From positions 1 to 42,921 of IMG/VR virus record IMGVR_UViG_3300033463_000305: DNA of 42,921 nt; one strand, given 5' to 3'. The notes under the pieces are model-generated. The model did no database searches. It had not been told where the DNA came from and saw nothing but the letters and a program-made list of their open reading frames with translations. The translations under genes and the position numbers were made by a program. Shown here piece by piece: positions 1-40,257 of this stretch. Each line of letters begins with the position of its first letter. Position 1 is the stretch's first letter. The stretch is from a virus.

Positions 1-127
1 GGTCGCCGGAAACGGATAGTTCGGAAACGGCATATTTATCCCCTCCTGCTGAAAAAGTATGTCGGTACGGTCTGTCCGGAGTCGAAGGTATCCCACCAAT
101 CGCCGTCTATCACGGCGACGGCGTGCT
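1..127. repeat. Terminal direct repeat, copy 1 (identical to 42795..42921)
   Basis: Read by eye: ggtcgccggaaacggatagttcgg...cacggcgacggcgtgct is identical at both window ends. The - strand ORFs continue across the junction. Confidence 0.95.
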
Positions 128-1257: not shown

Positions 1258-4200
1258 TTATGCCGTTGGCAGATTCAGCGTCGGCACGGACCTGCTCGCC
1301 GTGCCGTCCGGGTTCTGCTTGTTGGCCTTTGCTGCCACATCAGCGGGGATTGCCCCGGATTGCCATTCGTCGTAATACTTGGCGTAGGTCTTGCTGGTAT
1401 ATTCCTCTCCGCGTTCCGTCATGAAGGCCGTTTTGGCCACATAGTTGGCGAAGTTACCGCACCAATTAAGGACCTCAGCCTGCTCGTCTGCGGGTAGGGC
1501 TTTATACCACTTGCTCTTACGCACGGCGTCCGCAAATTGCGTGGTGACTTTGCCCCTGGTCTCCTGGTACTGCGTCCGCTCGTCAGGGGTCAGCGTGTAC
1601 TTCTCCTTGTTGATGGTGATGGAGTAGGGGGCGTTGCGCTCGGGGAGGATTTTTGCCTCTCCCGTTTCGTCATACACCCGCAAAAACTCGTCCGTGACTG
1701 CGGTTGAGTGGTAGACGCTGATATTGCCCGGGCTGAGGAGGGCGTTCAGAGCGTTCAGCGCCGGCGCTTGATAAGCCTTCTCCTCGCCCAGCGGGGTGAG
1801 TTTCGGCGCGAGTTGCTGACGGACGCCGGGGATGGCGTTTGCCACTTTCGCCGCCGTCTGTTCCAGGAGGTTCTGGCTCCGGTACTGGTCCCTGTAAACG
1901 GTGTCCGTTGCCTGGGCGATCTGGCGGATAGGCGCGGGGATGAAGCCGGAAACGGAGGACGCGGCGATCTCCATGGGAATCTGCATATACAGCGGGAGGT
2001 CGTTGGCCTCGTCGTGGTATCTCACCGTGCTGTAGATATTGGACAGTGTTTGCATTGCTGATGTGTCCTCCAGCGCCAGCCAGATTCCTTGCAGGCTCTT
2101 CTCCCCCATTTTCCCCGCCGTCTTGAGGTTGCGGAACATGTCATAGAGATCCATCGCCTTTATCTCCGGGTCGTTTACCGCCAGGGCCGCAATCGTCATG
2201 AGGGAGTCAAGCGGCTCCAGGAATCCGATGTCCGCCAGCACGTCACCCTCCTGCACATCAAGGCTCCCGCCGGAGAGCATCCTGCCCAGGGCGCTTACAT
2301 TGAGCTGGGTGCCGTTGAATCCCTGGGACTGGCGCAGCGCAGCGGCGTTTTTGTCCTTCTCATCGTCCTTGCGGCGCAGGAGCCCGGCTTTGGCCAGGAG
2401 GGCGAACAGGGTAATGAGCCCCGTCCCGGTGGTCGCCCTGCCGATGGAGAGGGCGGCGGCACGCTGCTTCGCCAGAGTGCTTTCCCCTTTGCTTTTGAGG
2501 TTCCCCAGTTGGGCAATGTTATAGATGGCCTTCAGGTATCCCACGGGGGAGAACTCAATGGCCCGGTGAATCAGGGCTCCGGGGACCTGGGTATATTTCA
2601 CCACCAAATCGCCCAGGCCAAAGTCATGCACCGGCAGTCCCTTGATGGTCTTGCCGTTGGTGGTCCCGGTCCCGATGATGTTCAGCACGTCCTTCAGCCC
2701 GCCCAGAATAGACCCTATGACCGTGCTGTCCTGGAAGGACCGATACAAGGCCATGTCTGTGGCGAACTCTGCGGCCTGCTCAACGGTCATGTCGCCACGG
2801 TCCACGAAGCGGGCCAAGCTCTCCATGGTCTCACCGTAGACGCTTCCCTTGTGAAATTCATCCGTGGTGTTGAGTTCATAGCCCAGGATGCGCTCCGCCT
2901 GGGAGAGTATCTTCCCCACCGTTCCGCTACTCGCCATGGCGAAGGTGCGGCGTCCGCCGGTCCCGTACTTAGACTGGTTCCGGTCATTCGGCGCGGCGTC
3001 CAGGGCGATCTCCAGAAGGTTTCTACCGGCTCCTTGCAGAGCGCCCTGCCGCTTCTGCTGGGAAGCCCAAGACTTGTTTAGGCCCACGCTCCGCTGACCC
3101 GTGATTGCCCCCATGATGATATCGGGCAAAAGGCCCACGTTGTTGGCGAGGGAGTCTACCATGTCGAACACCTGGTTGCTGGTCAGGTTCCGCATGGCGG
3201 TTCTGGCGTTCAGGAGGTGGGAGATGATCTGCACCGTGCTGATTTTCTCACCGGCCGTGCGGGGCTTGTAGTCTGCGGCTATAAGGTCGAGCTGCGCCAT
3301 GGCTAGGTTGCGGAGGTATTCCACGTCGGTTTCCCCGCTCAGCACTTTCTCCGCCATGCGGTCAAGCTTGGTGTTCCGCACCGCCGCCTGCTGCCGGATG
3401 AGGGACCGCAGCCCCTCCAGGTCATCGTCCGCCATGGCGTCCAGGGTATCGGCAAAGCTCGCCATGCTGTCCATGATCTGCCGCTGCTCCGCCCGGCTGA
3501 GCTTACCCAGGCCCAGGGCGTCCACCACAGCGTCCTCCACGTTGGCGTTGGTCAGGCCGCCCAGCCGGAAGAGATCGAGCAGCTTGTCCCGCTGTGCGGG
3601 CTTGACCCGCTCGCCCTTCTCCTCGAACATCTTCCGCAGAGCTTTGTCCGCGGCGGCAGCCAGCCGGTCCATGTAGTCCCCGGCGATGTAATCCGCAGCG
3701 ATGGCGGCGTCCGTGCCAGTGATGCCCAGGTCGTTGATGAGGTACTGCGCGATGGCGTTGGCCGCGTCGGTCTTGGTCTTGCGGCTCTCCCGGAGGAGGG
3801 ACTGGAGCTTCTGGTCCAGCTCCCGGGCCGCTTCCTGCTCCATGCGGCCCAGCCGCCCGGCCTGGTCGTCTTCCATGACCAGGTTGGTGATGTGCCTGGC
3901 CACGGCGTCCCGGACCTCGTCAGAGCCCACCTGCTTGGCGAACTCGTCGGCGATGCGGTTGATCGTGCTCTCATTCACTCCGGCGGCGGCCAGGTTCAGG
4001 ATGTCCTTCTTGCTCAGCCCCAGGGTGTCTGCGCTCTCCAGGATGGCCCGGAACATGGTCTGGTCCATGTCTCCGCCGTTGTAGGTGATCGTGGCATTCA
4101 GGAAGCTGTCCAGCGCCGCCAGCCGCTCCTCGTCCTCGGCGTACATGGCCCGCAGGACCTGCTTGGCCTCGTCCCAGGCCTGCGCGTAGGCCTCCCGGTT

Positions 4201-7200
4201 GTTGAGATAGTCCGTGATGCGCTCCACCGCGGTGCGGGGCTTCTGTCCTTCGGGACGGTCCGGGAGGGCATGCTCTTCGGCAAACGCCATGAGGTCGCCC
4301 AGGATGATCTGCATGGTGGTGCGCTCTTTGTTGCTCGGATCGTCAAAGCGCCTGCTGATCCGGTCCGCCAGCTCGTCGCCGGTGAGCTTGACCCACTGAT
4401 CGACGGGGGCACCGTGGTCTCTGGCGTACTTCTGGTTGAAGATGCGGTGGATCTGCCGGATGACGTTCTCCGCGTCCCGGGCTCTCTGCTCGGACCGCTT
4501 TTTCTCCTTGGGCAGCCGGGGCTTCCGCCCGGAAGTGTCCTCCACGGCTCCCTTCGCCGCCCCCTCGACAGCGCCGTCAACGGCCCCCAGGATCCCGCTC
4601 ACGTGGCCCTGGATGCGTTTCTGCTCCGCCGGGGTCAGCTTACCCGCCGTCTCACGGAGGCGCTCAGAGGCCTTCCTGGCTTGCTCAGTGGCGGTCCTGC
4701 TGTACTTGGCGAAGGCCTGCACGAACTGCCCGCCTTTGGTGCCCTTCTCCTGGATAACGTGGGACCACTCATGGAACAGGCTGTAGTCGCCGGTCTCGCG
4801 CCCGATCTGCCGGTACTGATGGAGGATGCCCATGGCGGTGTCCAGGTCGGACCCGCCCCACTGATCTGCGGTGGACAGCTTCTCCACCTCACCGGCGAAG
4901 TCCCTGCGCAGCCGCCCCAGGGCGTTCTGCATGGACTTCTGCTCGCTGATGGGGTCGTAGCTGAACTCTCCGGGCTGGGTCTCTGCCATCTGCGCCTCGA
5001 CCTCGTTGTACAGGCCGCCCAGCTCGAAGGCGTGGGTGCGGACCCGGGAGACCCTCTTCCTGCCCCGCCCGCCGGTGCGCCCGGTGCGGCGCTGTTCGGT
5101 GAGGTATTCCGCCTTGGCGATCTCCTGCGGGTCGATTTCGCGGGAGGTGTTACCAGAGGGCATCTTCGACTGGTAGGCGTAGTAACTCTTCGGGTTCTGC
5201 GGTTCGGAGATGATATCAGGGTCGATTTCCCGCAGCGCCTCGCGCAGGGAGGGCGTCACAGTGTTTGCGGGGATTTTGATTCCTGTGCCCTTCAGGTCGT
5301 GGTTCACAATGCGGTCCGCCACCTCGGCGTCTGAAAGCACACGGGCAACTTTCATCCACCTGGAGAGGAACAACCTACGGGGCTCACCGCCAGCTTTGGC
5401 CAGCGCGGTGGCCACATCTCCGCTCTTCCAGTCCGCCCAGCCCACAGGGTCCTTGGCCATATCCGCGTGGTAGGGGTGGTCCTCCTCGCTTCTCGGCACG
5501 ATGACCTCAACAGTGACCAGGTTGGGGCGCTCATAAGCTCCCTTGAACTGATCATTCAGTACGTAGTTACTGGCGTGATTGTAGGGGTTGTACGCTACGC
5601 CGGTATTATCTCCGCTGACCGGCTTGCCGATGTTGGTGCTCGCCCACTTCGCTCCGGGTTTCATCGTGGCGGTCTCCGGGTGCTCGTCGGCCTTGATCCA
5701 GGACGCGCCGGTCTGCTCCCCATCTACGACATCGTACACATCGCCGTTCTCGTCCACATACCCGAAAGGAGCGGAACGGAAGATGATGTTCCCGGCGGTC
5801 CTCGGGGTCTTTCCTGCATTAGGGTCCCGGCGCACGGTGTCCGCCATGGGGGAGCGGAGAGCTTTGCGTCCATCCTCGTCCTCAACGACTTCCATGGTGC
5901 GGTAGAGGTGAATGACGTCGCCGTTTTTCTCGGCTTCGTTCAGGTCGCGCAGAGTATCAGGGTCAATTTCCCGGCTGAAGCGGATGTCATCGTCCTGGGC
6001 GTTGAACCGCTCAGACAGGGGGATGACGTTGCCCTGGTCGTCGTAGGTCACGGGGTCGGCGGATTTAATCTGATCGGGGTCAAATACCACGTACTGCCCG
6101 GAAGCGGTGTTCCGATATGTCGCGTCGATTGCGTCATAGCCAAGGGATTTCAGCTCGTCCTGAATCTCGGTATTGCTAAAACCCTTATCCTCAGCCAAAT
6201 AGTTTATGAACCGATAGGTGCGGCCCGCGATGAAATTTGCCTCGGCCTTGGACATTCCCATTCTTTGCAGGGCCTCTGCTCCACGGGGGATAGGCTCGTC
6301 CGCATTGATGATATTCCTCTGGGATAGATAAACCGACATAACCTTCGGTTCGGCTTTCCCGGAAAGACCGCTTCTTCCCCGGCGCACCCACTCCCGCGCC
6401 TCGTTTTCGTTCGGCGTGAAGTAGAAGCCGCCGCCAAATTCCAGATAGCCATCATGGTTTCTGCCCTGCTCGCCTCTGGAGAACTTGGTGAAATCATCCG
6501 TCGTGCCGTGGTAAGCCTTGATGGTATATCCAGCCTGCTTTGCCGCCTCGTCCACCATCCGCTGGGCGGTGCCCATGTCCCCGGATTCAACGGCGGCCAG
6601 ATAGTCGCGGTCGAGCTCGCGGCTGAATTTCACGTCCGGGATGCTGTTCAGTTTTGCCAGTCTGTCCGCGTCGTCGCCACTCCGGTATTCCAGAGTGTTC
6701 ACCCCGTTGTCGTCCAGCACCTTCCGCGCCTGGGCGGAGATGTCGCTGGGCACCACCGCCGCCGCGATTTCGTCAAAGCCGACGGCCCGCATGGGCTTGG
6801 CCTCGAAGTATTCCGTGGGAAGCTGCGCGGCGTCACGGTATAGCTGTCTGAGCTCCTGGGCAATATCCTTGCCGATGGTGTACCCGTCCTTGCTCATGGA
6901 CCGGGTGATACTGCTCTCCGTCTTAGCCCCACGCGCCGCGTTGATGATGGCCGCCGCGAGAAGGTCATACTCTTCAAAGCGGTTGTCACTCCAGTGCTTG
7001 GTGGAGCTGTATATCCGCTCCACGGCGTCTGTGATTCTGGCATCCAGGCCCTTTTTCAGTTGCTCAAATTCTTCCTGGTCAATCGCGCCCAGTCTGCCGC
7101 GATCCGCCCTAATTTCCTCAACGTTCCGGTATTCCGGCGTCGTCACGCTTTGCAGGGACCCGGCGGTAACGCCCCAGGTGCTCGCCCCGCGCTGCGGCTC

Positions 7201-10200
7201 CGAAGCCATTGCCCGCACGATGTTCTCCAGCGTGTACGGGTCATAGAGTGAATCCCATTCGCGCCGGTTTCCTGCGGACGTGTAGATGTCCTTCTGGTTG
7301 CGGATTCCCTTCTTAGCAACAAGACCGCTTGCCAGGTCGTTCAGCCATGCGCGGTACTCGGCTTCTGTTCCCTCGGTATTGAACTCCTGCCGGATTGCCG
7401 TCCTCAGTGCTTCCGTATCAACTTCCGCCCTGCTGCTATCGTTCTCCATCTGCAATACGGCGTAAAGGATGCTGTTAAGTTTGGAATACGGCTGCTCCTT
7501 GCTGTATAGCGCATCGGCCACACGCTCGACCGTGGCACGGTCTGCTTTCCCCTTGGCGAGGGTTTTCTGGATGTAGTCCCGTTTGAGCCATTCCCGCAGT
7601 TCGGGCTCGATCTTCATTGTTTCATCGTAACCCGCGCTAAAGAGTTCCTGCACATTATACTTGGCGGCGAGCTCCCGGAGGGATTCGTTGCTCATGTACT
7701 GAGAGTACGCCTTTTCTTTGGTCGGTGCTCTGTCAAGCCTCCCGGCTTCTTTCAGGAAAGCATACTTCAATGCGTCCTCGTTGCCGTAAGCGGTGGCGAA
7801 GTCTCCGTTGTGGCGATTCAGTTTGTCTTTGAGGTTGTCGTCATCAATGTACGTCTTGATGACATCCGCGTCTTCGCCCAGGATGTTCTCAATGCGGCTG
7901 CGCAACGCTTTGGAGGCTTTTTCGTCCAGTTTATAGCCAACCGTCGGGCTGGTCGGCGTCCAGGCGTCGCTGCCGAACACCCGGTTCCTCCGGTCCGCCT
8001 GCGGGTCGATGGTGTCCTTGGTGTACACCAGGGAGATGGGCCCGTACTTGGTGTGCCCGGCATCCGCCTTGACGATGGCGATTGACGGCGCGGGAGCCCC
8101 GCCCAGCTCGCCCATGTCGATAAGGTTGCGTTCTGTCAGATTATGAACAGCAATCAGATCGGCAGTTTCCTCAGCGGGCATCTCCATAGAAAAGCGATTA
8201 CCCGTAATCTCGGTGCTGGCGCTTCCCTGCGTCTGAGCGCCTCTGTTGTTCTTCGCCGGCACGACGCCACGCCGCTCTGCCGCCCGGATGTCCTTCTTGG
8301 CGGTGGCCTTTGTCCGCACGTCCCCGGCCCTGCCTCTGGCAATGTCCAGCATGTCGAAGCCCGCCCGGTAGTCCGCCAGAAGCTCCTCTATGATCTTGTT
8401 CTCGTCGGTGACGCCCAGGGAATTATAGGCCTCCGCATACCTGTCCACAATGCTGGAGAGGTACGGCTGGAGCCTTGCATCGGAAAGCAGCGCGTCCTCC
8501 ACCGCCTGGCGGTATCCGGGGGCACTCTTGATGAGCTTGTGCAGTTCCTCATGGTCAAGGATTTGCTGCCAGGTGAGTTTGCTGTGGTCGGCCTGGATCA
8601 GCATCCGCTTCCTGTCAGCGGAAATCCAGCCACGGAAATTGTAGTCCCCGCTGGAGTCGTTCACACGGCCCTGCCCGATCATGAATTGGAGGTCGATACC
8701 GTTCTTTGCCGCCTCCTGCTGCGCGGTGCGCATAGCGCCGTCCAGCATATCCGTCGGCATGATCTGGAACGTCTGGTCCTCCGTGCCTCCGGGTATGCCC
8801 TGTTCCGCCGCGCTGGTGAAGGTCAGATCCCGAGCTTCCGCTTGATCGCGGAGGCGATTTGCTCTGGCGTTTTGCTGGGCGAATTGGGTTTCTGCGCTTC
8901 GCTGGGCCCGGTTCGCCCGGTACTCCGCGAGGAATCGACCCAAACCGGAACGCCGTTCCGCTCGGTCAAGAATCTCCCGGCTCCGCTGGGTTTCTGCCGC
9001 TGCTCTGGCCCGCTCGCGGAAGGAAGTTTGAGGCTGCTGTTCTCCTGCGGCCTCTGCGGTTGCACGGTCGGAAGTTTCAATGGTTCGGCCATTGCTGACT
9101 ACCTCCTCAGTATTTGTCTCAAGATTACCCTGCGCCTGCGCCTGTGTCAACAGGTTCGTATTCAGGCGGGCATAGCTCTCCACGGCCTGGCGGATCTGCT
9201 GCCGTCCGGCAGAATCGTCCCTCACCGTATCGATCAGCCCGGATTCCCGGAGGGCCTGCATGGAGGCAGCATCGTTGATGATCCGCCGCGCGTCGTTCTG
9301 GGTAAGCTGTTCGCCGGAGCGCAGCTTGTCCAGCGCCTTGGCAAGGGGATTGCTCTCAGAAGGCGTAGGAGGCGCTGTGCGCGTCTCCGGCTCGGTGGGT
9401 GTCTCTGCATGCGCCTGCCCGGATTCTTTCTCGGCGGCTGCCCTGGCGGCAGACGCAGCATCTTCCGCGACACCTCCGGCATAACGGAGCACGTTGCCAC
9501 CCATGCCCATACCTACACCGGAGATAATGCCGCCCATGGCGTCCAGGGCAAGCCCGGTTATCCACTTCCGCAACGCCGGACCCGTTCCCATCTCGTCAAT
9601 GTCCTTCAGCAGCTCGCTCTTGTCACCGTTGATCATCAGGTCGGTGACGGTGTTGGCAAGGGTGGTGAAGGCTTCCTCGCTGCCCTCCACAAGGCCCTGC
9701 TTTCCGGCGTTGATGATCCAGGGCCCAACCTTTTTTGCCAGTTTGGAGACCCACTTTTCGGTGAGTTTTTCCCCGATGGTCTCTCCGGCCTTCGCCTCGA
9801 TGGAGCCCACCAGGTTGTCCAGGCTGATTTTCTCAAAGGCATATTCCGCGATGCCGGCGGCGTACCCGGTGAGAAGTGCCTGACCATCAGACGCGCCACG
9901 CTCCTTGGCGTCGTACACGGCCTGCTGGGCGGCTCCGCCAGACATGAGGGAGAGGGTGACGGGTTCCGGGACGCCGAAGCGATTCAACAGGAGCTGCGTA
10001 CCAGAATCGGCTAGGCTCATGCCGGTCTGGTAAGCGAAGGAGGCCAAATTGACGATCCCGGGGATTTCAGCCTTCGGGAATCGCTCCTCCAGGTTCTTGG
10101 ATACCTCGCTGCGGATCTGCTGCGTGATCTGGCCCGGCGCCTGTAAAGGCGTGTTATAATCAATCGGGCGGTTGTCGCCCATCATCCGCCGGATGTTCTG

Positions 10201-11373
10201 GACCGTGAGGTCTACCACGCCTGCAATGCTGGCCTGATTCAGCAGAGTCGAAACCGCCGACATTCCCGCAGCGGCCAGCGGGGAGCTGTCCACGATCCCT
10301 GCAATATCCTTCTGACGCTGTTGGGCCTTTCTCTCATTGAGCAGATGCTTGATGGAGTTGATATACTCGGTTGCTGCTTTTTGGCCCTCGGTGTTCCACA
10401 GGTAGAAGAAAATCGACCTCTCATCGTCTTGGATGAAATTGTACGGGTCGTTGGAGATGCCCTCCACATTGTCGCCGCCCCGGCTGTATACGTTAGCATA
10501 CATCCGCTTTGCCGGATCAAACGACGCAGCTTTCCAACGCTTGGCGTCTGCCGCGTTTCCGCCGCTGCGCAGAAGGAAATCATCCCTCCCGCGCAGAGAG
10601 GCGTATTTCTGATACTGAAGATCGCTGGCCAGTTTGTTATACTGAGAGGCAGCCTCCTGTTCTGCTGCATGGGCGGCGCTGGACTCTTCCGTAGCCTGCT
10701 GGACCCATGCCTGAATGTCTGCATCATTGTCACTGTAGGGATTGCCGCCCTTTGCTGTGAGCGCAGCGCCCAGACGCAGGCTTGCACTCAGTGCGTTACC
10801 CTTCGCCTGGTCCAGTGCATCAGAGGCAGCTCTTACCTGGTCCTCCGTGGTGCCGGTGCGTGCAAGTCCGCTCGCCCGCTCATACGCGCCGTACATGTTG
10901 CGGTAAATCGGCTGAATAGCCCTCAGCTCCTGCTCGGCACGCCTTGCCGCCCGGGGATCGTCGCCCTGCATAACGTCGTGAAGATGGTTCACACGGCGCT
11001 GCACGGCGTCAAGATCGCCCTGAGCTTTGTCAATCGCGGCCTGCCGCGCTGTGTTCGCAGCGTTCTCGATCCAATTAACGGGCTGAGAAGCAGACCCTAT
11101 GCTCCCGGAAACATGCGAGGACGCAGACGGCCCCACGAAGTCTTCGTTCATCTTCGTGGGCGAAACAAGGAGAGACTGCTGCGCAGGCTGACGCTTGACG
11201 CTGCCCTGAATCTTGGTCTGTACCTGTTCCTGGGCCCGCTTCTCCTGCTTGGCCTGTTCCTTGATGAAGGCCAAGGCATCTGCTTTCCCGGCGTCTGCGG
11301 TGCCTTTAGCCTGGGATTTGATAAACGCGAGGGCGTCTTCCTTGCTGGTGTCAGTACTGGAAGTCTTCAACAC
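1258..11373 (-). CDS. Giant polyvalent virion protein (3,371 aa) with HExxH metallopeptidase-like and ART-PolyVal-like modules; putative ejected/internal protein
   Basis: Uninterrupted 10,116-nt ORF with GTG start at 11373 behind GGAAGGGGG. LDHEELHKL lies at nt 8539-8553. YLAAVESGDM..MVDEAAKQAGYTIKAYHGTTDDFTKF..GGGFYFTP lies at ~6049-6606. It has Gly/Met-rich and hydrophobic segments and sits after the tail genes. Confidence 0.85.
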   Translation of the reverse strand: MLKTSSTDTSKEDALAFIKSQAKGTADAGKADALAFIKEQAKQEKRAQEQVQTKIQGSVKRQPAQQSLLVSPTKMNEDFVGPSASSHVSGSIGSASQPVNWIENAANTARQAAIDKAQGDLDAVQRRVNHLHDVMQGDDPRAARRAEQELRAIQPIYRNMYGAYERASGLARTGTTEDQVRAASDALDQAKGNALSASLRLGAALTAKGGNPYSDNDADIQAWVQQATEESSAAHAAEQEAASQYNKLASDLQYQKYASLRGRDDFLLRSGGNAADAKRWKAASFDPAKRMYANVYSRGGDNVEGISNDPYNFIQDDERSIFFYLWNTEGQKAATEYINSIKHLLNERKAQQRQKDIAGIVDSSPLAAAGMSAVSTLLNQASIAGVVDLTVQNIRRMMGDNRPIDYNTPLQAPGQITQQIRSEVSKNLEERFPKAEIPGIVNLASFAYQTGMSLADSGTQLLLNRFGVPEPVTLSLMSGGAAQQAVYDAKERGASDGQALLTGYAAGIAEYAFEKISLDNLVGSIEAKAGETIGEKLTEKWVSKLAKKVGPWIINAGKQGLVEGSEEAFTTLANTVTDLMINGDKSELLKDIDEMGTGPALRKWITGLALDAMGGIISGVGMGMGGNVLRYAGGVAEDAASAARAAAEKESGQAHAETPTEPETRTAPPTPSESNPLAKALDKLRSGEQLTQNDARRIINDAASMQALRESGLIDTVRDDSAGRQQIRQAVESYARLNTNLLTQAQAQGNLETNTEEVVSNGRTIETSDRATAEAAGEQQPQTSFRERARAAAETQRSREILDRAERRSGLGRFLAEYRANRAQRSAETQFAQQNARANRLRDQAEARDLTFTSAAEQGIPGGTEDQTFQIMPTDMLDGAMRTAQQEAAKNGIDLQFMIGQGRVNDSSGDYNFRGWISADRKRMLIQADHSKLTWQQILDHEELHKLIKSAPGYRQAVEDALLSDARLQPYLSSIVDRYAEAYNSLGVTDENKIIEELLADYRAGFDMLDIARGRAGDVRTKATAKKDIRAAERRGVVPAKNNRGAQTQGSASTEITGNRFSMEMPAEETADLIAVHNLTERNLIDMGELGGAPAPSIAIVKADAGHTKYGPISLVYTKDTIDPQADRRNRVFGSDAWTPTSPTVGYKLDEKASKALRSRIENILGEDADVIKTYIDDDNLKDKLNRHNGDFATAYGNEDALKYAFLKEAGRLDRAPTKEKAYSQYMSNESLRELAAKYNVQELFSAGYDETMKIEPELREWLKRDYIQKTLAKGKADRATVERVADALYSKEQPYSKLNSILYAVLQMENDSSRAEVDTEALRTAIRQEFNTEGTEAEYRAWLNDLASGLVAKKGIRNQKDIYTSAGNRREWDSLYDPYTLENIVRAMASEPQRGASTWGVTAGSLQSVTTPEYRNVEEIRADRGRLGAIDQEEFEQLKKGLDARITDAVERIYSSTKHWSDNRFEEYDLLAAAIINAARGAKTESSITRSMSKDGYTIGKDIAQELRQLYRDAAQLPTEYFEAKPMRAVGFDEIAAAVVPSDISAQARKVLDDNGVNTLEYRSGDDADRLAKLNSIPDVKFSRELDRDYLAAVESGDMGTAQRMVDEAAKQAGYTIKAYHGTTDDFTKFSRGEQGRNHDGYLEFGGGFYFTPNENEAREWVRRGRSGLSGKAEPKVMSVYLSQRNIINADEPIPRGAEALQRMGMSKAEANFIAGRTYRFINYLAEDKGFSNTEIQDELKSLGYDAIDATYRNTASGQYVVFDPDQIKSADPVTYDDQGNVIPLSERFNAQDDDIRFSREIDPDTLRDLNEAEKNGDVIHLYRTMEVVEDEDGRKALRSPMADTVRRDPNAGKTPRTAGNIIFRSAPFGYVDENGDVYDVVDGEQTGASWIKADEHPETATMKPGAKWASTNIGKPVSGDNTGVAYNPYNHASNYVLNDQFKGAYERPNLVTVEVIVPRSEEDHPYHADMAKDPVGWADWKSGDVATALAKAGGEPRRLFLSRWMKVARVLSDAEVADRIVNHDLKGTGIKIPANTVTPSLREALREIDPDIISEPQNPKSYYAYQSKMPSGNTSREIDPQEIAKAEYLTEQRRTGRTGGRGRKRVSRVRTHAFELGGLYNEVEAQMAETQPGEFSYDPISEQKSMQNALGRLRRDFAGEVEKLSTADQWGGSDLDTAMGILHQYRQIGRETGDYSLFHEWSHVIQEKGTKGGQFVQAFAKYSRTATEQARKASERLRETAGKLTPAEQKRIQGHVSGILGAVDGAVEGAAKGAVEDTSGRKPRLPKEKKRSEQRARDAENVIRQIHRIFNQKYARDHGAPVDQWVKLTGDELADRISRRFDDPSNKERTTMQIILGDLMAFAEEHALPDRPEGQKPRTAVERITDYLNNREAYAQAWDEAKQVLRAMYAEDEERLAALDSFLNATITYNGGDMDQTMFRAILESADTLGLSKKDILNLAAAGVNESTINRIADEFAKQVGSDEVRDAVARHITNLVMEDDQAGRLGRMEQEAARELDQKLQSLLRESRKTKTDAANAIAQYLINDLGITGTDAAIAADYIAGDYMDRLAAAADKALRKMFEEKGERVKPAQRDKLLDLFRLGGLTNANVEDAVVDALGLGKLSRAEQRQIMDSMASFADTLDAMADDDLEGLRSLIRQQAAVRNTKLDRMAEKVLSGETDVEYLRNLAMAQLDLIAADYKPRTAGEKISTVQIISHLLNARTAMRNLTSNQVFDMVDSLANNVGLLPDIIMGAITGQRSVGLNKSWASQQKRQGALQGAGRNLLEIALDAAPNDRNQSKYGTGGRRTFAMASSGTVGKILSQAERILGYELNTTDEFHKGSVYGETMESLARFVDRGDMTVEQAAEFATDMALYRSFQDSTVIGSILGGLKDVLNIIGTGTTNGKTIKGLPVHDFGLGDLVVKYTQVPGALIHRAIEFSPVGYLKAIYNIAQLGNLKSKGESTLAKQRAAALSIGRATTGTGLITLFALLAKAGLLRRKDDEKDKNAAALRQSQGFNGTQLNVSALGRMLSGGSLDVQEGDVLADIGFLEPLDSLMTIAALAVNDPEIKAMDLYDMFRNLKTAGKMGEKSLQGIWLALEDTSAMQTLSNIYSTVRYHDEANDLPLYMQIPMEIAASSVSGFIPAPIRQIAQATDTVYRDQYRSQNLLEQTAAKVANAIPGVRQQLAPKLTPLGEEKAYQAPALNALNALLSPGNISVYHSTAVTDEFLRVYDETGEAKILPERNAPYSITINKEKYTLTPDERTQYQETRGKVTTQFADAVRKSKWYKALPADEQAEVLNWCGNFANYVAKTAFMTERGEEYTSKTYAKYYDEWQSGAIPADVAAKANKQNPDGTASRSVPTLNLPTA

Positions 11374-12841
11374 GGACAGTTCCCCCTTCCTTGTTGGGCT
11401 TCTTCACCTTGGTATACGTCCATTTTCCGGTGTGGGAGTTATATGTTGCCTTTACCTCATCTTCCGCCACAGCGCGGGCGAGCTCGTCCCAGGTGTAGCC
11501 GGTTCCATCAACAAATACCCTGCCGCCGGAGATGCTATTCGTCACGCTCTTGGCGGCGTCGGCGGTCCCTGTCTGGGCACCGCCAGTATCTGTGGCGCCG
11601 GGAGCGGTATTCCCAACAGAGTCATAACCAATATCGCCCTGGTCAAACTGCTTGGAAAGCATGATGTCCTCCGGGCTTGCGCCTTCCCGCATGGCGTTGC
11701 GGATATGCACATCCTGGCTTCCGCCATAAGGCGTAGTGACCAGGTCGTTCAAGTAACTGAGATAGTCCGGGCGTGTGTTGCTGCCATACGGCGTTTTTTC
11801 CGTTACTGGGGATTCCGTTTCCTCCGCCGGGGGATTGCTGCCGCCGGGGCCATACCCTCCGGCGGACTGCTGAGACGCGAGCCAAGCGTCCACGTCGATT
11901 CCCAGGGCCCGCAGGCCGGAGTAATCGCCATACTGCGCCCTCCGCTGGGCGTCCTGCCACGCCTGATCCTGCTCGGTGATAGCGTCAAGCCTCGCCTGCC
12001 GCTCCCGGTCAAGCCGGTCCTGCTCCCGGGCATAATTGGTCTCGTCATCATAGATCTTCCGCTGATACGCCGTCTGCTCCGCGTTTTGGGTCCGGGCAAT
12101 GGCGTCCGCGTTCTCGCCCGCTGCCAGATTGTACTGATCCCGGAGTTGGCCGAGCCGGTCCCCGTATACGCCGTACTCGAAGCTCCGGTCCGCGTTCAGG
12201 GCGTCCAGGGCCTGGAGCTGCCGCTGATACTCCTGGAGATACCGCTGGTACGCCTGCTGGTACAACTCGGGGATCTTGTCCGCCATCTGGGCGGAGTAGT
12301 AGTTCCCCGCCTGCTGCGCCGCCGTCATGGCCGCCGTGCTGGGCCTGCCCCCGGTCATGGCGGCATACTGCCCCATGGTGTCCTCGCTGGCCCGCCGCCC
12401 CTCCCGGGCGTAGGTCTTCCGGTAGGAGGAATATACCGGGTCCGTCTCCGGATCATAGGAGAAAGCCCCGTAGTTCAGCACCTTGTCCATGGCCCCCCGG
12501 TAGTCCGGGGCCCGGGAATAATCGAAGGGGCCATACCCGTTCACCGCCTCCCGTGCGGCATTCTGCGCCTGCTGCGTGGGGGAAAGGTCGTACAGGCTGC
12601 CGTCCCCGCCGCCGGTAAAGCCCTTAGTCCGGTTCAGCTCCGTCTGCTGCTGATGGTACACCGCCCTCTGCTCCGGCGTGGCGGCGGCAGCGTATCCCAC
12701 CTTGTTGGACGTGGTCCCCCAGCCGTAATCCGGGTCCGCCTCTGCCAGGGCGAGCTGCTGGGCCGAAAATTGGCCGTACACTCCCGCGGCCTTGGCCCAT
12801 TCGTCCCAGGTCTTGTAATTCGGATTCTGATACCCGTTCAT
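11351..12841 (-). CDS. Q/Y-rich virion protein, putative internal/ejection protein
   Basis: 496 aa with GGGAGGAAAG RBS. The central part is Q/R/D-rich and helical. It lies between the tail genes and the giant protein. Confidence 0.6.
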   Translation of the reverse strand: MNGYQNPNYKTWDEWAKAAGVYGQFSAQQLALAEADPDYGWGTTSNKVGYAAAATPEQRAVYHQQQTELNRTKGFTGGGDGSLYDLSPTQQAQNAAREAVNGYGPFDYSRAPDYRGAMDKVLNYGAFSYDPETDPVYSSYRKTYAREGRRASEDTMGQYAAMTGGRPSTAAMTAAQQAGNYYSAQMADKIPELYQQAYQRYLQEYQRQLQALDALNADRSFEYGVYGDRLGQLRDQYNLAAGENADAIARTQNAEQTAYQRKIYDDETNYAREQDRLDRERQARLDAITEQDQAWQDAQRRAQYGDYSGLRALGIDVDAWLASQQSAGGYGPGGSNPPAEETESPVTEKTPYGSNTRPDYLSYLNDLVTTPYGGSQDVHIRNAMREGASPEDIMLSKQFDQGDIGYDSVGNTAPGATDTGGAQTGTADAAKSVTNSISGGRVFVDGTGYTWDELARAVAEDEVKATYNSHTGKWTYTKVKKPNKEGGTVRVEDFQY

Positions 12842-12859: not shown

Positions 12860-14536
12860 TTATAGCCTGTTCGGGCTGCCCTCATATACTTCCGTGGTGA
12901 TGCTGTGTACGATGCAGGGCCCGGTCCCCTGGAGCTTCAGCCGGAAGTGGTCGCAGCGCCGGGGGATCACCGGCAGATACCAGCTCTGCTTCCGGGCGGA
13001 CTGCTCCGCCGTGATGCTCTGCACCGTGATCCAGTCCCCCCCGCCGTCGTAACGGATCAGGATCCCCGCTGCGCTCCCGGCGGGCAGCTCCAGCCGCACC
13101 AGCACCTTGGAGATGGTCTTCTTGTTGGGGCTGGGCCTGCTTCTCCGGCTGTTCACGTTCTGTCCGTAGTAGTCCCCAAGCTCCGCCCACCAGGAAACCG
13201 CCGCCTCCGCCGTGCCTGCGGCCCCCGTGTCCGTCGTCCAGAGCTTCCCCGGCACGGTCACGGGCTCGCCTCCCGGCGTCTCTGAGGGCGTTGTGGAGGC
13301 TGCTGTGAGGCATTCCACGCTCCCCGGGCTCCCCGGGGCGAAGAAGGCCCCCTGCGTGGCGTCCTGGATGTGCCATACCTGCCGCATGGCATCGAATACA
13401 TACAGCAGCCAGCCCCCGTTTTCATCCTGCGCCGACAGGTAGTATTTCAGGCCGTCGCTCCCGCCGACGCCGCCGGACAGCTTCCGCCCGATAGACTCCC
13501 CGATGGACTGCGGTATCCCGCCCGCGTACACCACAGGCCCCACCCGGGAGAGGTAATACAGGCTTTCGTTGGCTATCGCCAGGCTCCGCCCGCAGCCCTC
13601 CATCACCCCGAAATCCGGGGCGCTCTGGGGCTCAAAGTTGGCGGGCCGGGACCCGTACACCTTGAAGATATGCCGCTCCTTGAAGAAGCAGGGATACCCC
13701 AGAAAGCTGATGCATCCGGTGAAGTCCCCCTCCGTGCCGCTCTCCCAGCTCCAGGAGTCCGTGCTGAGCCCGTCGAACACGTTCCAGTTGTACGGGTCCC
13801 CCAGTTTGGAGCAGCGGATGGTGTCCCCCTTGCAGCCCCATACCCGGTTCTCGTTCACGCAGATCCAGTCCAGGTCCGGCACGGTCCGGGCCACGGTGAT
13901 GCCTGCCGCCGTGCTGTCGTCAGTGAAGCTGTTCTCATAGAAGCGCAGCTCGTCCCCCTCCACCTCCCGGACGATGATGGTCTGATTGTTCTCCGCCTGG
14001 GCGGAGCCGGAGATCGTCACGGCGTCCCCCGCCCGGAAATACGTCCCCCAGTCGAAGGAGGAGGACGCCGCCTTGATGGTGTTTCCCTCCGCCGCCTCTC
14101 CGGCATAGGTGCCGTCGGTGAAGGTCGCGGATACGGTGACGCTCGCCTCCAGGCTCCCCACCGTCCAGGCCGTGGCCGGGGCCACGGGGGGCGTGAGCAC
14201 CTTCTTGTCCGGCCACAGGAGCACCCGCTCCCCCAGAGCGGCGAACACCTTGGGCCCGTCCGTCACCGCGGCGGCGCTCGCCCCGTCGATGTACAGGGCC
14301 GTCCCGTCCACGGTAAACCGGCTCCCCCCGGCCCGAAACAGGCCGTTGGGCTTGGTCACGCTCCCCAGGTTCACCCGCCCCGGGCGCACGCTGAGCCGGG
14401 GAAAGTCCCCGCTCCACAGGTTCCGCATATCGAAAAGGTCCCCGTCCTCCGCCCCGGCGGTGTGGTTCAGCCCCCCGAAGGCGGTCTGGGGAAACTGCCG
14501 GATCCGGTCTCCCCCGGGCAATGTGGGCAGTTTCAT
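12860..14536 (-). CDS. Putative tail structural protein (558 aa)
   Basis: TAGGAGGACACAGC precedes the ATG. The composition is beta-rich and the gene lies in the tail module. No specific family was recognised. Confidence 0.6.
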   Translation of the reverse strand: MKLPTLPGGDRIRQFPQTAFGGLNHTAGAEDGDLFDMRNLWSGDFPRLSVRPGRVNLGSVTKPNGLFRAGGSRFTVDGTALYIDGASAAAVTDGPKVFAALGERVLLWPDKKVLTPPVAPATAWTVGSLEASVTVSATFTDGTYAGEAAEGNTIKAASSSFDWGTYFRAGDAVTISGSAQAENNQTIIVREVEGDELRFYENSFTDDSTAAGITVARTVPDLDWICVNENRVWGCKGDTIRCSKLGDPYNWNVFDGLSTDSWSWESGTEGDFTGCISFLGYPCFFKERHIFKVYGSRPANFEPQSAPDFGVMEGCGRSLAIANESLYYLSRVGPVVYAGGIPQSIGESIGRKLSGGVGGSDGLKYYLSAQDENGGWLLYVFDAMRQVWHIQDATQGAFFAPGSPGSVECLTAASTTPSETPGGEPVTVPGKLWTTDTGAAGTAEAAVSWWAELGDYYGQNVNSRRSRPSPNKKTISKVLVRLELPAGSAAGILIRYDGGGDWITVQSITAEQSARKQSWYLPVIPRRCDHFRLKLQGTGPCIVHSITTEVYEGSPNRL

Positions 14537-14560
14537 GCTGTGTCCTCCTAAATCTAGTAG

Positions 14561-15241
14561 TCATGAATCGCTTCCGTAGATCAGGGATCCGCTTCCCGCA
14601 TTATAATAATACCGGTCTTCCATGATCTCGTGCAGACAGGCGGTTTGATTTTCAGCGAGCGCCGGTCGATAATCCCGCACCAATTCCGACCCTTCGTAAA
14701 TAGTGAAACCGTATATTTTGCCGGTTATTGCACAGCCGCTCCCCCATCCGTAGAGCGTGCCTATGGCCAAAGGATATAGAGAGTTTGTCGGATGTGCGTT
14801 TTCCAACGTAATTTGCCCTGTAAGAGTGCCGTCCATGGCTTCCCAGGCAGCATTATATCGGGTCACATCGAAACGCATTTTGGTGTCATATACATCCCGC
14901 CCAGGAGCAGCCTCGCCGTGAACGCCTCCGGATTGCAGCCCAAAATACCCCAAACTATCGCCGCCGACAGAAAAGGAAAAATTGTCGGTAGAATAAGCGC
15001 CCGAACGGCTTCCGAACAGAAACGAGCCGCTATATGCCATCACGGGCCTGATAGTTGCGACAATCTGAATCCTTGTATACGGCGTTGCCAGATAATCGCT
15101 GTCGATCCACTCCTGCCCGAAAAACTGTAAATAGTTATTATATACAGGCACTGGCTGCGGCCTCCTTGAGGCCGCTCCCCACCCCTTCAGCTGCCGCCCC
15201 ACAGCCAGTCCGGCAAGGAAGCTGTTCTTGTCGTACTGCAT
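14561..15241 (-). CDS. Putative receptor-binding / lectin-like tail protein
   Basis: 226 aa with AAGGAGGGGCA RBS. N-terminal MQYDKNSFLAGLAVGRQLKGW and C-terminal ..GKIYGFTIYEGSELVRDYRPAL..YYYNAGSGS resemble (from memory) jelly-roll fibre tips of gut phages. G+C is visibly lower than in the flanks. Confidence 0.5.
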   Translation of the reverse strand: MQYDKNSFLAGLAVGRQLKGWGAASRRPQPVPVYNNYLQFFGQEWIDSDYLATPYTRIQIVATIRPVMAYSGSFLFGSRSGAYSTDNFSFSVGGDSLGYFGLQSGGVHGEAAPGRDVYDTKMRFDVTRYNAAWEAMDGTLTGQITLENAHPTNSLYPLAIGTLYGWGSGCAITGKIYGFTIYEGSELVRDYRPALAENQTACLHEIMEDRYYYNAGSGSLIYGSDS

Positions 15242-15250
15242 TGCCCCTCC

Positions 15251-16174
15251 TTACTCCCAGATGATCTCCGTCTCGTGCCCGCTGCCGTCCGTGATCAGCA
15301 CGGGCCGGTCCTGGGAATCGAACTCCACGGCGTAGGAATTGACGATCTCCCCGTCCAGCGTCTCGGTGAAGCTCCCGTTGTCCCAATCGGAGAAGTCTAT
15401 CTCCGTGGTCTTCCGCAGCCCGGTGATGTCCGTATACCCGCCCCCGGCGGGATCCCCGATGAATATGCCCTGCCTTTCCCCGAAGCGGTTCAGGAGCCAG
15501 AGGTCGAAGCTGTTCCGGTTCTTCCGCAGGTAACCCTTCCCCCGGTCCGGGTCCGAGCTTGAGCCGTACCCCGCCCCGAAGACCAGCTCGGGGATCTTCG
15601 TGGTCACGCCCTCCTCGGTCACGTCCTCGAACCGGTAAGTCCCCTTGACCAGTTCATTGTACTGATACACCGTCACGGGCCAGGCCGTGGGCTCCAGGCT
15701 CGTCATCCGGGTATGCTCTGCGTCCGTCCACCAGAAGCACCGGCTTCCGTGGTGCAGCTGCTCCGTCAGGGGCGCGCCGTTTTCCGTCTTCACCGTGCCG
15801 GTGAGGAAGTCGATCTCCTCATCGTGGATGTGCAGGTAGTCCAGCGCTGCCGTGTTCCCCGCCAGATACCGGGCGGCCTTCTGATAGTCCGTCCGCAGCT
15901 CGTCCACCACCAGGTCGGCGATGGCCCCGTACTCCGCGTAAAGCTCATTGGTGATGACCGTGTTGGAGATGACGGTCTCCGTGACGATCTCATTCCCCCA
16001 GTCCTTCATCTCCGCTTCGTTGAAGTTCTCCGGGGAGAGGTTCCGCAGGATGTACCGCAGATTCTCCAGCAGGAGGAAGACGTAGTTGTACAGGGCGTCC
16101 ACCTTCTGCTCCGTGGATTCCCGCCCGGTAAAGGACGGGAACCCGTTGTCCAGCGCCGCAAATTGTGTAGGCAT
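15251..16174 (-). CDS. Putative tail structural protein (307 aa)
   Basis: ORF with GAGGTAACGCC before the ATG. It lies between the lysis cassette and the tail genes. The N-terminal FPSFTGRESTEQKVDALYNYVFLLLENLRYILRNL pattern is recalled from phage tail proteins. Confidence 0.55.
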   Translation of the reverse strand: MPTQFAALDNGFPSFTGRESTEQKVDALYNYVFLLLENLRYILRNLSPENFNEAEMKDWGNEIVTETVISNTVITNELYAEYGAIADLVVDELRTDYQKAARYLAGNTAALDYLHIHDEEIDFLTGTVKTENGAPLTEQLHHGSRCFWWTDAEHTRMTSLEPTAWPVTVYQYNELVKGTYRFEDVTEEGVTTKIPELVFGAGYGSSSDPDRGKGYLRKNRNSFDLWLLNRFGERQGIFIGDPAGGGYTDITGLRKTTEIDFSDWDNGSFTETLDGEIVNSYAVEFDSQDRPVLITDGSGHETEIIWE

Positions 16175-16183
16175 GGCGTTACC

Positions 16184-16456
16184 TCATTTCAGCCCGATCT
16201 TCACCGCGATGTACGCCAGCAGGGCCGTCACCACCCATGTCAGCACCTGCTGGCTGATGCTGTCCCACCTTCGGGCGGGCTTCATCCGCAGCTCCTGGAG
16301 GGTCTGGGACATCTCCCCAAGCTTGGTGTCGATCTGGTCCAGCCGCTGCCGCAGAAGCGCAAGGGCCACGTCCCCGTTGTGCAGCCGCTCCTCCGTGGCG
16401 TCCATCCTGCGCCGCAGCTCCTCGAACTCTCCCCGGGTCACGGTCTGCTCATTCAT
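16184..16456 (-). CDS. XhlA-like lysis-associated membrane protein
   Basis: 90 aa from the internal ATG at 16456, which overlaps the holin stop. It has a coiled-coil N-terminal part and a C-terminal TM helix (VLTWVVTALLAYIAVKIGL), as in PBSX XhlA. Confidence 0.5.
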   Translation of the reverse strand: MNEQTVTRGEFEELRRRMDATEERLHNGDVALALLRQRLDQIDTKLGEMSQTLQELRMKPARRWDSISQQVLTWVVTALLAYIAVKIGLK

Positions 16457-16646
16457 GCCTGTCCACCTCCGGCAGCCCCGTGGCAATGCTGGTGAGGATG
16501 CTCAGCACCCCCGCCAGGGCGGAGGCGGAGGCCACCACGGCCCAATTCACGTCGCTCAGCACGGCGCTGGTGCCGATGGTGGCGATGGCGGTCTGGGCGA
16601 TGGTCCGCAGAGCGCGGATCCCCGCCGCCCGGATAAACTGCTTCAT
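16449..16646 (-). CDS. Holin (two TM helices)
   Basis: 65 aa with an ATGA overlap onto the lysin stop. It has two hydrophobic helices (RTIAQTAIATIGTSAVL and WAVVASASALAGVLSILTSIATGL) and lies directly after the endolysin. Confidence 0.65.
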   Translation of the reverse strand: MKQFIRAAGIRALRTIAQTAIATIGTSAVLSDVNWAVVASASALAGVLSILTSIATGLPEVDRHE

Positions 16647-17314
16647 TTCAGATCCCCCTTTTCCTTCGCTGCGTTGTACCGCTGGAGCATCACGGCCAGC
16701 TCCTCCCGGGTGACGGGCTTTTCAGGCCGGAATGTCCCGTCCGGGTAGCCCTCCATGATCCCCGCGTCAATGGCCCACCGCATGGCCTGCTCAGACCACC
16801 GGCCTTCATAGTCCTTCGGCATAGGCTCATCCTTGTACTGCGGGCGGCACACGCCCACGATCTGCGACGGATAGCGGATCCTCAGCGCCACGCATCCGCC
16901 GTTGTTCTGGCTCCCCTCGTACCCCGTGGCAGTGTTTCCCTCGACGGTGTAGATAACGGTTCTCCCGTTCTGCACAGGCGTATCCTCCACCAGCCCGCAG
17001 TGCTCCGGCTCCGTCCCTCCGCGGAAGTTCAGCAGGAGGATATCCCCCGCCCGCACCTCCTCCGCCGGGACCGTCTGCCCCTGCTCCCTGTACCACCGGT
17101 ACAGCATCCCGCAGGAGGCGGTCTTGGCCCCGCCGAAAAACGCGGACCCTTCCCCCGCCTCCCGGAAGCACCACCAGAGGAAGGCCGCGCACCAGGGCTG
17201 CCCCTGCCACGCCGGATCATACGCTTCCCAGTACTTCGTCCGATTGCTCCCGGGCGGCGATTCCGTATACCCCAGCTCCCCCCGGGCGGTCTCCAGCACC
17301 TTGCTCAGGCTCAT
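16643..17314 (-). CDS. Endolysin: CHAP/NlpC-P60-type amidase/peptidase with C-terminal SLH domain
   Basis: The Cys in QPWCAAFLWWCF and the His in EHCGLVED fit a CHAP fold. The C-terminal AMRWAIDAGIMEGYPDGTFRPEKPVTREELAVML is a textbook S-layer-homology motif. Confidence 0.8.
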   Translation of the reverse strand: MSLSKVLETARGELGYTESPPGSNRTKYWEAYDPAWQGQPWCAAFLWWCFREAGEGSAFFGGAKTASCGMLYRWYREQGQTVPAEEVRAGDILLLNFRGGTEPEHCGLVEDTPVQNGRTVIYTVEGNTATGYEGSQNNGGCVALRIRYPSQIVGVCRPQYKDEPMPKDYEGRWSEQAMRWAIDAGIMEGYPDGTFRPEKPVTREELAVMLQRYNAAKEKGDLK

Positions 17315-18558: not shown

Positions 18559-18908
18559 CCCTCCTGTACCGGGTCGTATCTCTGGCAGTACCACCGCAGG
18601 TATTCCGACCAGGCGTTGTTGAACATCGCCATGGTGTTCTGTGCCCGGTCGTATTCCCCGTTCGCCAGGTCCGCCTGGGCCTGGAGCCACCAGGTATATA
18701 CCCCGGTGTACGGAACCCCTGTCTTCAGCGTTTTCGTCAGGTTTTCCGCCGTGTAGGGCAGCCAGTCCTCCAGGCTCTCCGGCGTCTCCAGCCGGATCTC
18801 CAGGGCGATCTTTCCCTCGATCTCGCTGAGCCAGTTCAGCTTAACCCCCTGGGAGAAGGCGTTGGGCTTTACGCCGTCCAGATAGTCCAGTGCCTGCTGT
18901 ACCGTCAT
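18555..18908 (-). CDS. Putative head-tail adaptor / head completion protein
   Basis: 117 aa with a TGATG overlap. The call rests on its position after the capsid genes and is weak. Confidence 0.4.
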   Translation of the reverse strand: MTVQQALDYLDGVKPNAFSQGVKLNWLSEIEGKIALEIRLETPESLEDWLPYTAENLTKTLKTGVPYTGVYTWWLQAQADLANGEYDRAQNTMAMFNNAWSEYLRWYCQRYDPVQEG

Positions 18909-19321: not shown

Positions 19322-19380
19322 GTCCTCCTTTTGCGCAGGAGGCCGGGGTTTCCTCCGGCCTCCTCTCCGTTGCTTACTTA

Positions 19381-19596: not shown

Positions 19597-19611
19597 ATCT
19601 CAGCCCTCCCG

Positions 19612-20616: not shown

Positions 20617-20634
20617 TGTGCTCTTCCTCCTTCC

Positions 20635-21039: not shown

Positions 21040-21054
21040 GGGTAATTACTCCTT

Positions 21055-38677: not shown

Positions 38678-38761
38678 GTTTTCTGTCCTCCATCGTTGAT
38701 AATTGTTTCTCTCTGTTATATTATGGAGGCAATGAAAAATCTGTCGGAAGGTGGTTACAAT

Positions 38762-40138: not shown

Positions 40139-40195
40139 CGTTTTATCACGTATAAGCCCGCATGAAACAATGGAAAACACTGTGCTATATCTGTA

Positions 40196-40216: not shown

Positions 40217-40219
40217 TCC

Positions 40220-40250: not shown

Positions 40251-40257
40251 TCCTCTG

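Follow-up and report, generated by a model that had tools for sequence, protein, structure and literature searches.

What is the function of a single gene that takes up almost a quarter of a phage genome? The question is raised by the IMG/VR virus record IMGVR_UViG_3300033463_000305, which was analysed over its full length of 42,921 nucleotides (here called the window). An open reading frame (ORF) on the minus strand, 1258..11373, encodes a protein of 3,371 amino acids (aa) and 370.6 kDa, in the following called the giant. The giant is probably a polyvalent effector carrier that is packaged into the virion and ejected; its phage appears to be temperate and short-tailed, with gut Oscillospiraceae as hosts. 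Polyvalent proteins were defined as a class by Iyer, Burroughs, Anand, de Souza and Aravind (2017; PMC5512222). The alignments show that the giant consists of a conserved N-frame, comprising an N-domain and a predicted metallopeptidase, and a conserved C-frame (aa 2106-3350) around a hypervariable centre.

The frame design became visible in the comparison with P0042, a relative of 3,715 aa identified by an exhaustive HMMER search. P0042 is 82-84% identical to the giant over aa 1-1035 and 1736-3350. Between these flanks, the block of the PBECR5 and ART domains of the giant is replaced by about 840 unrelated amino acids without a Pfam match. Recombination between conserved flanks is suggested by this arrangement, as more than 80% identical flanks surround an unrelated centre. 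The pattern extends beyond this pair. In 26 proteins with both the peptidase and the C-frame, the centre has a length of 280-1,445 aa and falls into 12 unrelated clusters; the centre of the giant is a singleton. Frame-sharing relatives reach 3,820 aa.

Is the giant gene intact and real? The ORF is uninterrupted, with 3,371 codons and a stop, and begins with GTG. A purine-rich, Shine-Dalgarno-like run, AAGGAAGGGGGA, is located 7 nt 5' of the GTG, and the first 23 nt of the ORF overlap with the 3' end of the 496-aa gene in front of it. The GTG start is supported by P0042, because its residue 1 aligns to residue 1 of the giant. Window positions 1-127 and 42795-42921 form an exact direct repeat of 127 bp. 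Terminal repeats of this kind typically arise when an assembler closes a circle, and the window therefore represents a complete closed genome of 42,794 bp. The giant ORF covers 23.6% of this circular genome, in agreement with the original prediction of one uninterrupted ORF with a share of about 24%. That prediction had also asked whether the ORF was an assembly chimera or affected by frameshifts. Such an artefact is excluded, since around 50 related contigs have an ORF of 1,800-2,900+ aa in the same slot and P0042 shares start and flanks.

The predicted protein has a pI of 5.4 and, among its 3,371 residues, a single cysteine. All motifs named at first inspection were located: HExxH at 941-945, VHNLTERN/GGAPAPSIAI at 1075-1100, ART-PolyVal at 1615-1773, LYRTM at 1823 and YNPYNH at 1928. 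The first description of the composition needed revision. A hydrophobic N-terminal third and a hydrophobic C-terminal quarter were overstated: the hydropathy plot has one weak, marginal transmembrane-like segment (aa 2981-2999, mean Kyte-Doolittle value 1.45), and the ILVFMW content along the protein is 15-32%. A Gly/Met-rich patch is present in the N-terminal third, but it comprises only about 17 residues (610-626). The 496-aa neighbour was described as Q-rich and has only 8.3% Gln. A DALAFIK(S/E)QAK motif is duplicated near the N-terminus of the giant (aa ~13-23 and ~32-42).

Is such a large gene exceptional? The 558-aa protein encoded near the giant served as marker for the phage family, with 167 loci in IMG/VR and 32 more in GTDB species-representative genomes; the IMG/VR locus counts rest on 80 fetched of the 167 relatives. 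An ORF of more than 1,000 aa was present at 61 of the 80 loci. At most loci with enough downstream DNA, the giant ORF begins 1.2-1.5 kb after the marker. Closed ORFs of more than 1,500 aa (n=35, loci from IMG/VR and from metagenome-assembled genomes (MAGs) together) have a length of 1,834-2,901 aa with a median of 2,568 aa, and many more exceed the fetched flank. Prophages in Oscillospiraceae MAGs follow the same pattern. A cargo of this size had been considered unusual for a phage of 43 kb. It is the rule in this phage family, and gp47 of phage phi24B, the prophages phi1 and phi4 of strain LM41 and phage Ab9 are comparable. Relatives carry other polyvalent modules in the same slot: LPD23, LPD3, MuF_C and DUF6782.

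The giants of the family have at least three C-terminal types without detectable mutual similarity (L016-L018, L049-L051, L057, L060, L063, L065, L073 and L074). A profile-profile comparison of the C-frame with the two other C-terminal types detected no homology; with Neff values of ~1 for these two alignments, it was a weak test. The type of L016-L018 had no match to the hidden Markov model (HMM) of the giant's HExxH module, yet it has two HExxH motifs of its own.

The N-terminus begins with a low-complexity, helical region (aa 1-254; 10612..11373, minus strand, as for all segments of the giant). An iterated HMM search found no homologues of this region among 63 family giants; in P0042 it is 82% identical. 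The conserved N-domain follows (aa 255-640; 9454..10611), which is characterised by FFYLWNT, VEGSEEA and the Gly/Met patch LDAMGGIISGVGMGMGG and has no match in Pfam. A further 51 proteins of ~770-4,900 aa, the majority above 2,500 aa, have this domain close to the N-terminus; this family was gathered from the IMG/VR loci and from the matches of the representative search. Against an index of 5.8 billion proteins, aa 300-1040 and aa 300-650 yielded two and zero matches, respectively, and low-complexity words probably swamped the candidates. An A/Q/E/R-rich linker without homologues (aa 641-850; 8824..9453) leads to a predicted zincin-like metallopeptidase (aa 851-1035; 8269..8823). This HExxH module of about 150 aa is present in 52 of the 63 family giants. 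His941, Glu942 and His945 are invariant in 37 distinct relatives. Glu997 is a candidate for the third ligand of zinc; it is conserved in all 24 of the 37 sequences in which this position is aligned. Two relatives match the metallopeptidase family DUF6782. By its conservation, and by its place where the hub domain is expected, the module would fit the zincin 'MPTase' hub of polyvalent proteins.

The centre begins with PBECR5 (aa 1059-1256; 7606..8199), a predicted metal-independent RNase (Pfam, E 2e-49, 169 bits). H1077, N1078, H1107, D1123, D1136, W1138 and T1139, which are conserved across 41 distinct PBECR5 relatives, are all present in the giant. The VHNLTERNL..GGAPAPSIAI module, described earlier without an assignment, is the N-terminal part of PBECR5. 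An extension of ~330 aa (aa 1257-1591; 6601..7605; PHROG 22978) always accompanies PBECR5 and is also present in the Acinetobacter phage Ab9. The next domain is an ART-PolyVal ADP-ribosyltransferase (aa 1615-1773; 6055..6531; Pfam, E 1e-16, 62 bits) with the H-Y-D triad H1622, Y1651 and D1765. In the Pfam domain check with HMMER, PBECR5 and ART-PolyVal, both hallmarks of the class of Iyer et al. (2017), were well above the cut-offs. Together with the family-invariant HExxH and the LPD23, LPD3, MuF_C and DUF6782 modules of relatives, they support the polyvalent-protein assignment of the original prediction. With E-values up to 10, Pfam searches of eight sub-segments of the giant yielded only noise, and NCBIfam provided nothing useful. 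The GC content at third codon positions (GC3) is 0.70-0.74 in the PBECR5/ART cassette (6055-8265) versus 0.80-0.90 in the C-frame (1324-5058). This difference is weakly consistent with a different origin or a recent acquisition of the cassette.

The LYRTM module turned out to be a real domain that is widespread and not represented in Pfam, and its model is confident. This LYRTM/YNPYxH domain (aa 1795-2075; 5149..5991) was modelled by AlphaFold2 with a pLDDT of 84.5 and a pTM of 0.83. A search with aa 1790-2600 found 820 cluster representatives at E<1e-10. Among the matches listed, most cover aa ~1890-2054, the YNPYxH domain, usually within proteins of 2,000-6,000 aa. The conserved pattern is YNPYxHxS...NDQF..R...SE...Y...R..R, and the invariant polar residues are Y1928, N1929, H1933, S1935, N1940, D1941, Q1942, R1949, S1962, E1963, R1999 and R2005. 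This residue pattern suggests an enzymatic function. The domain had no match in Pfam, PDB sequences or PDB folds. A match of A3 to huntingtin in the PDB was spurious and confined to columns of the low-complexity flank. PDB sequence searches with the giant (phmmer) and with two profiles yielded nothing genuine.

The C-frame begins with aa 2106-2290 (4504..5058), a segment with DLDTAMGIL ... GTKGGQFVQAFAKYSRT. A helical segment follows (aa 2291-2588; 3610..4503), which only the closest giant relatives conserve and which homologues of 1,000-1,200 aa lack. The last part is an all-alpha module (aa 2589-3350; 1324..3609), in the following the C-module. The AlphaFold2 model of aa 2589-3371, calculated from 32 sequences, had a pLDDT of 79 and a pTM of 0.75. 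A second HExxH motif, HEWSH at aa 2201-2205 (4759-4773, minus strand), was considered as a peptidase motif and rejected. Homologues have FNEWSH, FWRWSK and similar sequences at this position; the motif is not conserved and hence a chance occurrence.

What is the function of the C-frame? On its own (aa 2106-2290 plus 2589-3350), it constitutes the C-terminal part of proteins of 1,000-1,200 aa that are encoded by the last structural gene of related phage contigs of ~39 kb. Among predicted viral structures in BFVD, the C-module had 44 matches at E<1e-3. The best matches are viral polyvalent proteins, namely gut-virome proteins of 900-1,300 aa that UniProt names for MuF_C, LPD3, ART-PolyVal or 'nuclease' (E 1e-29 to 1e-17, TMq 0.57-0.68). 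Lower in the ranking are proteins with the name 'internal virion protein' from T7-like podoviruses of marine bacteria; the match to Pelagibacter phage Eyrgjafa has E 5e-15 and TMq 0.47, that to Synechococcus phage S-CBP3 has E 1e-9 and TMq 0.51. The gene of S-CBP3 is located in a T7-type block after tail tubular protein B.

As an alternative, the giant could be primarily a structural conduit or a ruler, similar to T7 gp15/gp16 or to a tape measure, whose length would serve to span the thick Gram-positive wall and the S-layer and for which the enzymes are secondary. The long helical regions and the all-alpha C-module are in line with this, as are the slot after the PHROG 511 gene, the SLH-anchored surface layers of the host and the conduit role that the phi24B authors proposed for gp47. 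The length of the proteins speaks against it. Closed ORFs of more than 1,500 aa vary from 1,834 to 2,901 aa, frame-sharing proteins have up to 3,820 aa and C-frame-only proteins 1,000-1,200 aa. The giant cannot be a fixed ruler, because its centre is replaced by unrelated sequence. Furthermore, tape-measure families of Pfam and PHROGs did not match the giant, it is the last gene of the operon without tail-completion genes after it, and ART requires cytoplasmic NAD+ and cytoplasmic targets. A primarily structural role is therefore considered unlikely.

Is the giant a virion protein? The ART and BECR-fold RNase domains are common to polymorphic toxins. This allows for a late polyprotein outside the virion, a cytoplasmic or released toxin or anti-defence protein that acts in the producer or, after lysis, in neighbours. 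Two related loci encode the C-module in a different context. A protein of 1,147 aa with a weak ART-PolyVal match and the C-terminal module (L003, 10001-13444; L004, 3718-7161) is encoded beside a tyrosine integrase in a bacterial contig of 119 kb. Its four small neighbour ORFs on the reverse strand have no Pfam match, and no portal, capsid or terminase was found among the genes listed for these loci; this absence of recognised structural genes is in favour of a toxin outside the virion. A remnant is one possibility here, a small hitch-hiking element another; only the carrier protein would then have been kept. Several observations argue against a non-virion toxin. The N-terminus of the giant has no signal peptide or secretion domain, an adjoining immunity gene is not evident, and its place as last gene of the structural operon is strictly conserved. 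The C-module model resembles predicted structures that are annotated as internal virion proteins, and gp47 of phi24B is physically present in virions. We consider the non-virion toxin improbable and favour the packaged effector carrier.

The gene neighbourhood is in agreement with packaging. The late structural operon is encoded on the minus strand and includes the large terminase (25053-26561) and, after it, the portal (22395-24374). A 313-aa protein is encoded between the portal and the major capsid protein (19612-20616). Genes for 137-aa and 459-aa proteins precede a lysin of 223 aa, a CHAP peptidase with a C-terminal SLH domain (16643-17314), which is followed by a 'minor tail' protein of 307 aa and a protein of 226 aa. 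Next comes the 558-aa protein (12860..14536), a homologue of PHROG 511, 'internal virion protein' (E 3e-50). The 496-aa gene (11351..12841) is conserved, and also in relatives it separates the 558-aa gene from the giant. The giant is the final gene of the operon, with no tail genes 3' of it. The ejection-protein slot proposed in the original prediction is supported by this position after a PHROG 511 homologue and by the modelled fold of the C-module, which resembles predicted structures annotated as internal virion proteins. The claim of a genome without tape measure stands in part. The larger ORFs from portal to giant (137-558 aa) had no tape-measure, tube or sheath match in PHROGs and Pfam; the scan did not include the 134-aa ORF (20635-21039) or possible small ORFs within the gap at 16174-16643.

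The terminal place in the late operon is also typical of receptor-binding, tail-fibre or host-adhesion proteins, which are encoded by the last gene of many structural modules of short-tailed phages. No other clear receptor-binding protein was identified among the 307-, 226- and 496-aa proteins. Beta-helix, collagen, Ig-like or carbohydrate-binding families were not detected in the giant, and its identifiable domains have intracellular substrates. Its C-terminus is the most conserved part and the centre is variable, opposite to receptor-binding domains. A role in adhesion is thus very improbable.

The anatomy, synteny, conservation pattern and domain identities of the giant are established by these comparisons. 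The assignment as a packaged and ejected effector carrier goes further, and several points weigh against it. Virion packaging and cell entry, like ejection, processing and targets, are argued by analogy from Iyer et al. (2017) and from precedents. The metallopeptidase is predicted by an invariant motif only, as no Pfam peptidase family matched the HExxH copy of the giant. A Foldseek search of the C-module against the PDB, including T7 gp14-16 entries, had no match (best E 0.34). On the level of sequence profiles, the similarity of the C-module to the S-CBP3 protein is insignificant (hhalign probability 3.7%), and the 'internal virion protein' names of the BFVD matches are annotations, not experiments. 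For these two reasons, the fold of the C-module is taken as supporting, not as proving, an internal-virion role. A role of the C-frame as membrane pore is speculative, given one weak hydrophobic helix. The short tail, that is, a podovirus morphology, is deduced from gene content only, with the two small parts of the structural block outside the scan. Finally, three loci from rabbit-gut Clostridia MAGs (L108, L109 and L110; ~13400-21500) have several ORFs of 350-900 aa at this place instead of one giant. These ORFs had no BLASTP match to the giant, which may be split or replaced in this sub-lineage.

How would a packaged giant act? It would be made late, and a few copies would be packed inside the capsid during assembly. 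The internal core of T7 has a mass of ~1.5 MDa; in phage N4, about four copies of the polymerase (383 kDa) are packed. Approximately four copies of the giant would equal the mass of the T7 internal core, which makes the packaged mass plausible. At infection, the giant would exit via portal and tail before or with the DNA, and the C-frame may help to form or to traverse a conduit through the envelope. The invariant metallopeptidase may release the effectors by cleavage of the polyprotein, which could take place within the capsid or in the cell. The RNase and the ADP-ribosyltransferase, perhaps also the YNPYxH domain, would modify host RNA and proteins in the first minutes, before phage gene expression, and thereby weaken the defence or gain control of the cell. 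By exchanging cassettes between the conserved flanks, related phages would be able to change their effector set.

A wider proposal is tentative, and we regard it as possible rather than probable: the two frames form a dedicated 'effector-delivery chassis' of a large clade of gut Clostridia phages, with cassettes exchanged by flank recombination, and the YNPYxH domain is a new enzyme family acting on a host target early in infection. The two-frame chassis, the near-isogenic cassette swap and the YNPYxH domain appear to be previously undescribed.

The host and the lifestyle were deduced from relatives and gene content. Nearly all of the 32 GTDB marker loci are in MAGs of Oscillospiraceae or other Clostridia; Oscillibacter sp. 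ER4 and Intestinimonas are examples of carriers. Together with the SLH domain of the lysin, these MAG hosts point to Oscillospiraceae as host, and the SLH domain indicates a host among the Clostridia with an S-layer. Several marker loci are located within MAG contigs of 94-320 kb and hence are prophages. The temperate lifestyle is inferred solely from these relatives; in a Pfam scan of the remaining large ORFs of the window, no integrase was recognised, though relatives reside in MAG chromosomes. Among GenBank phages, no near relative of the genome was found.

Other genes of the window contribute to the picture of the phage. The CHAP-SLH lysin is located inside the tail and structural block rather than in a lysis cassette and is possibly a wall hydrolase associated with the virion. 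Two adjoining genes (27054-28914, minus strand) are located immediately upstream of the terminase region. One codes for a radical-SAM protein (PHROG 9298, E 9e-88), the other for a 324-aa protein with matches to PHROGs of Mom-like DNA modification, DNA methyltransferases and PAPS-reductases. The gene pair may be a DNA hypermodification module for anti-restriction. A 688-aa ORF (40162-42228, plus strand), the sole long gene on this strand, and a 487-aa ORF (38465-39928, minus strand) have no Pfam or PHROG match.

Injected phage proteins are prime candidates for anti-defence functions, because they are active before any phage gene is expressed. To our knowledge, very few of them have been studied, all in model phages. 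The locus separates a carrier, the conserved frames, from a payload, the swappable centre, in an abundant, uncultured lineage of gut phages. It offers testable modules: a PBECR5 RNase, an ADP-ribosyltransferase with an H-Y-D triad and the widespread YNPYxH domain with enzyme-like invariant residues. Reading the sequence between the frames in thousands of metagenomic relatives suggests itself as a way to mine new anti-defence effectors, and the frames are a possible scaffold for protein delivery by phage particles. Since the concept as such is known, the giant is of value as a well-characterised example and as a source of candidates.

Like the polyvalent proteins described by Iyer et al. (2017), the giant combines many unrelated domains in a single large polypeptide, among them PBECR5 and ART-PolyVal with the H-Y-D triad. 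The recurring zincin hub of the class has a candidate counterpart in the HExxH module, and the gene among virion genes and the predicted injection with the DNA are further parallels. In contrast, most of its length (the N-domain, the YNPYxH domain and the C-frame) is outside the Pfam models from that work. Its carrier is a two-part frame with a C-terminal fold similar to internal virion proteins, not MuF, a portal or an N4-type RNA polymerase. Phage_Mu_F had no match in the giant, and MuF_C was found only in one relative and in P0001. The encapsidation of gp50, the virion RNA polymerase of phage N4, requires the zincin peptidase domain of this protein (Iyer et al. 2017; PMC5512222). Like the giant, gp50 is very large (~3,500 aa); a few copies are encapsidated in a short-tailed phage and ejected. 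The two proteins have no sequence similarity, and an RNA polymerase module was not found in the giant with Pfam, NCBIfam and PHROGs. The similarity to T7 gp14-gp15-gp16 concerns the gene position after tail genes, the neighbour that matches PHROG 511 and the modelled C-module, which resembles predicted structures of annotated proteins of T7-like cyanophages and pelagiphages. Unlike the T7 proteins, the giant has no match to the solved core structures, is three times larger and carries effector enzymes. A lytic transglycosylase or lysozyme family was not detected in the giant.

Three systems have a comparable giant gene. Proteomics detected gp47 of Stx phage phi24B (vb_24B_48; 2,807 aa) in abundance in virions, and a role as encapsidated ejection protein was proposed (bioRxiv 10.64898/2026.04.10.717836). 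It is a giant polyvalent protein with HExxH motifs, encoded by the last late-region gene of a short-tailed temperate phage. In contrast to the giant, it has LPD38, LPD5, LPD1 and MuF_C domains and takes 14.6% of a 57.7-kb genome, versus 23.6% here. BLASTP, hhalign and the module HMMs of the giant revealed no similarity between the two. The prophages phi1 and phi4 of Clostridium clostridioforme LM41 (PMC11318856) are temperate phages of ~41 kb from gut Clostridia with podovirus-like particles in transmission electron microscopy. They have an LPD3-like ORF of ~8 kb at the 3' end, ~20% of the genome. Their host belongs to the Lachnospiraceae, a domain dissection has not been published, and searches of the phage collection indicated no close sequence relationship to the giant. 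The cultured Acinetobacter phage Ab9 encodes CDS0016 (2,839 aa, PP763254) with PBECR5 and its extension, 22% identical to the giant over 540 aa (tblastn; HMM E 3e-42). This ORF takes 22% of a 38.7-kb genome and directly follows a tail protein, two internal virion proteins and a 773-aa 'endolysin', according to the annotations. It differs from the giant in a GNAT instead of an ART domain, in the position of HExxH after and not before the RNase module, in the absence of N-domain and C-frame and in the proteobacterial host. Judged by these comparisons, phi24B gp47, the LM41 prophages and Ab9 appear to share with the giant not the sequence of the frames but the design.

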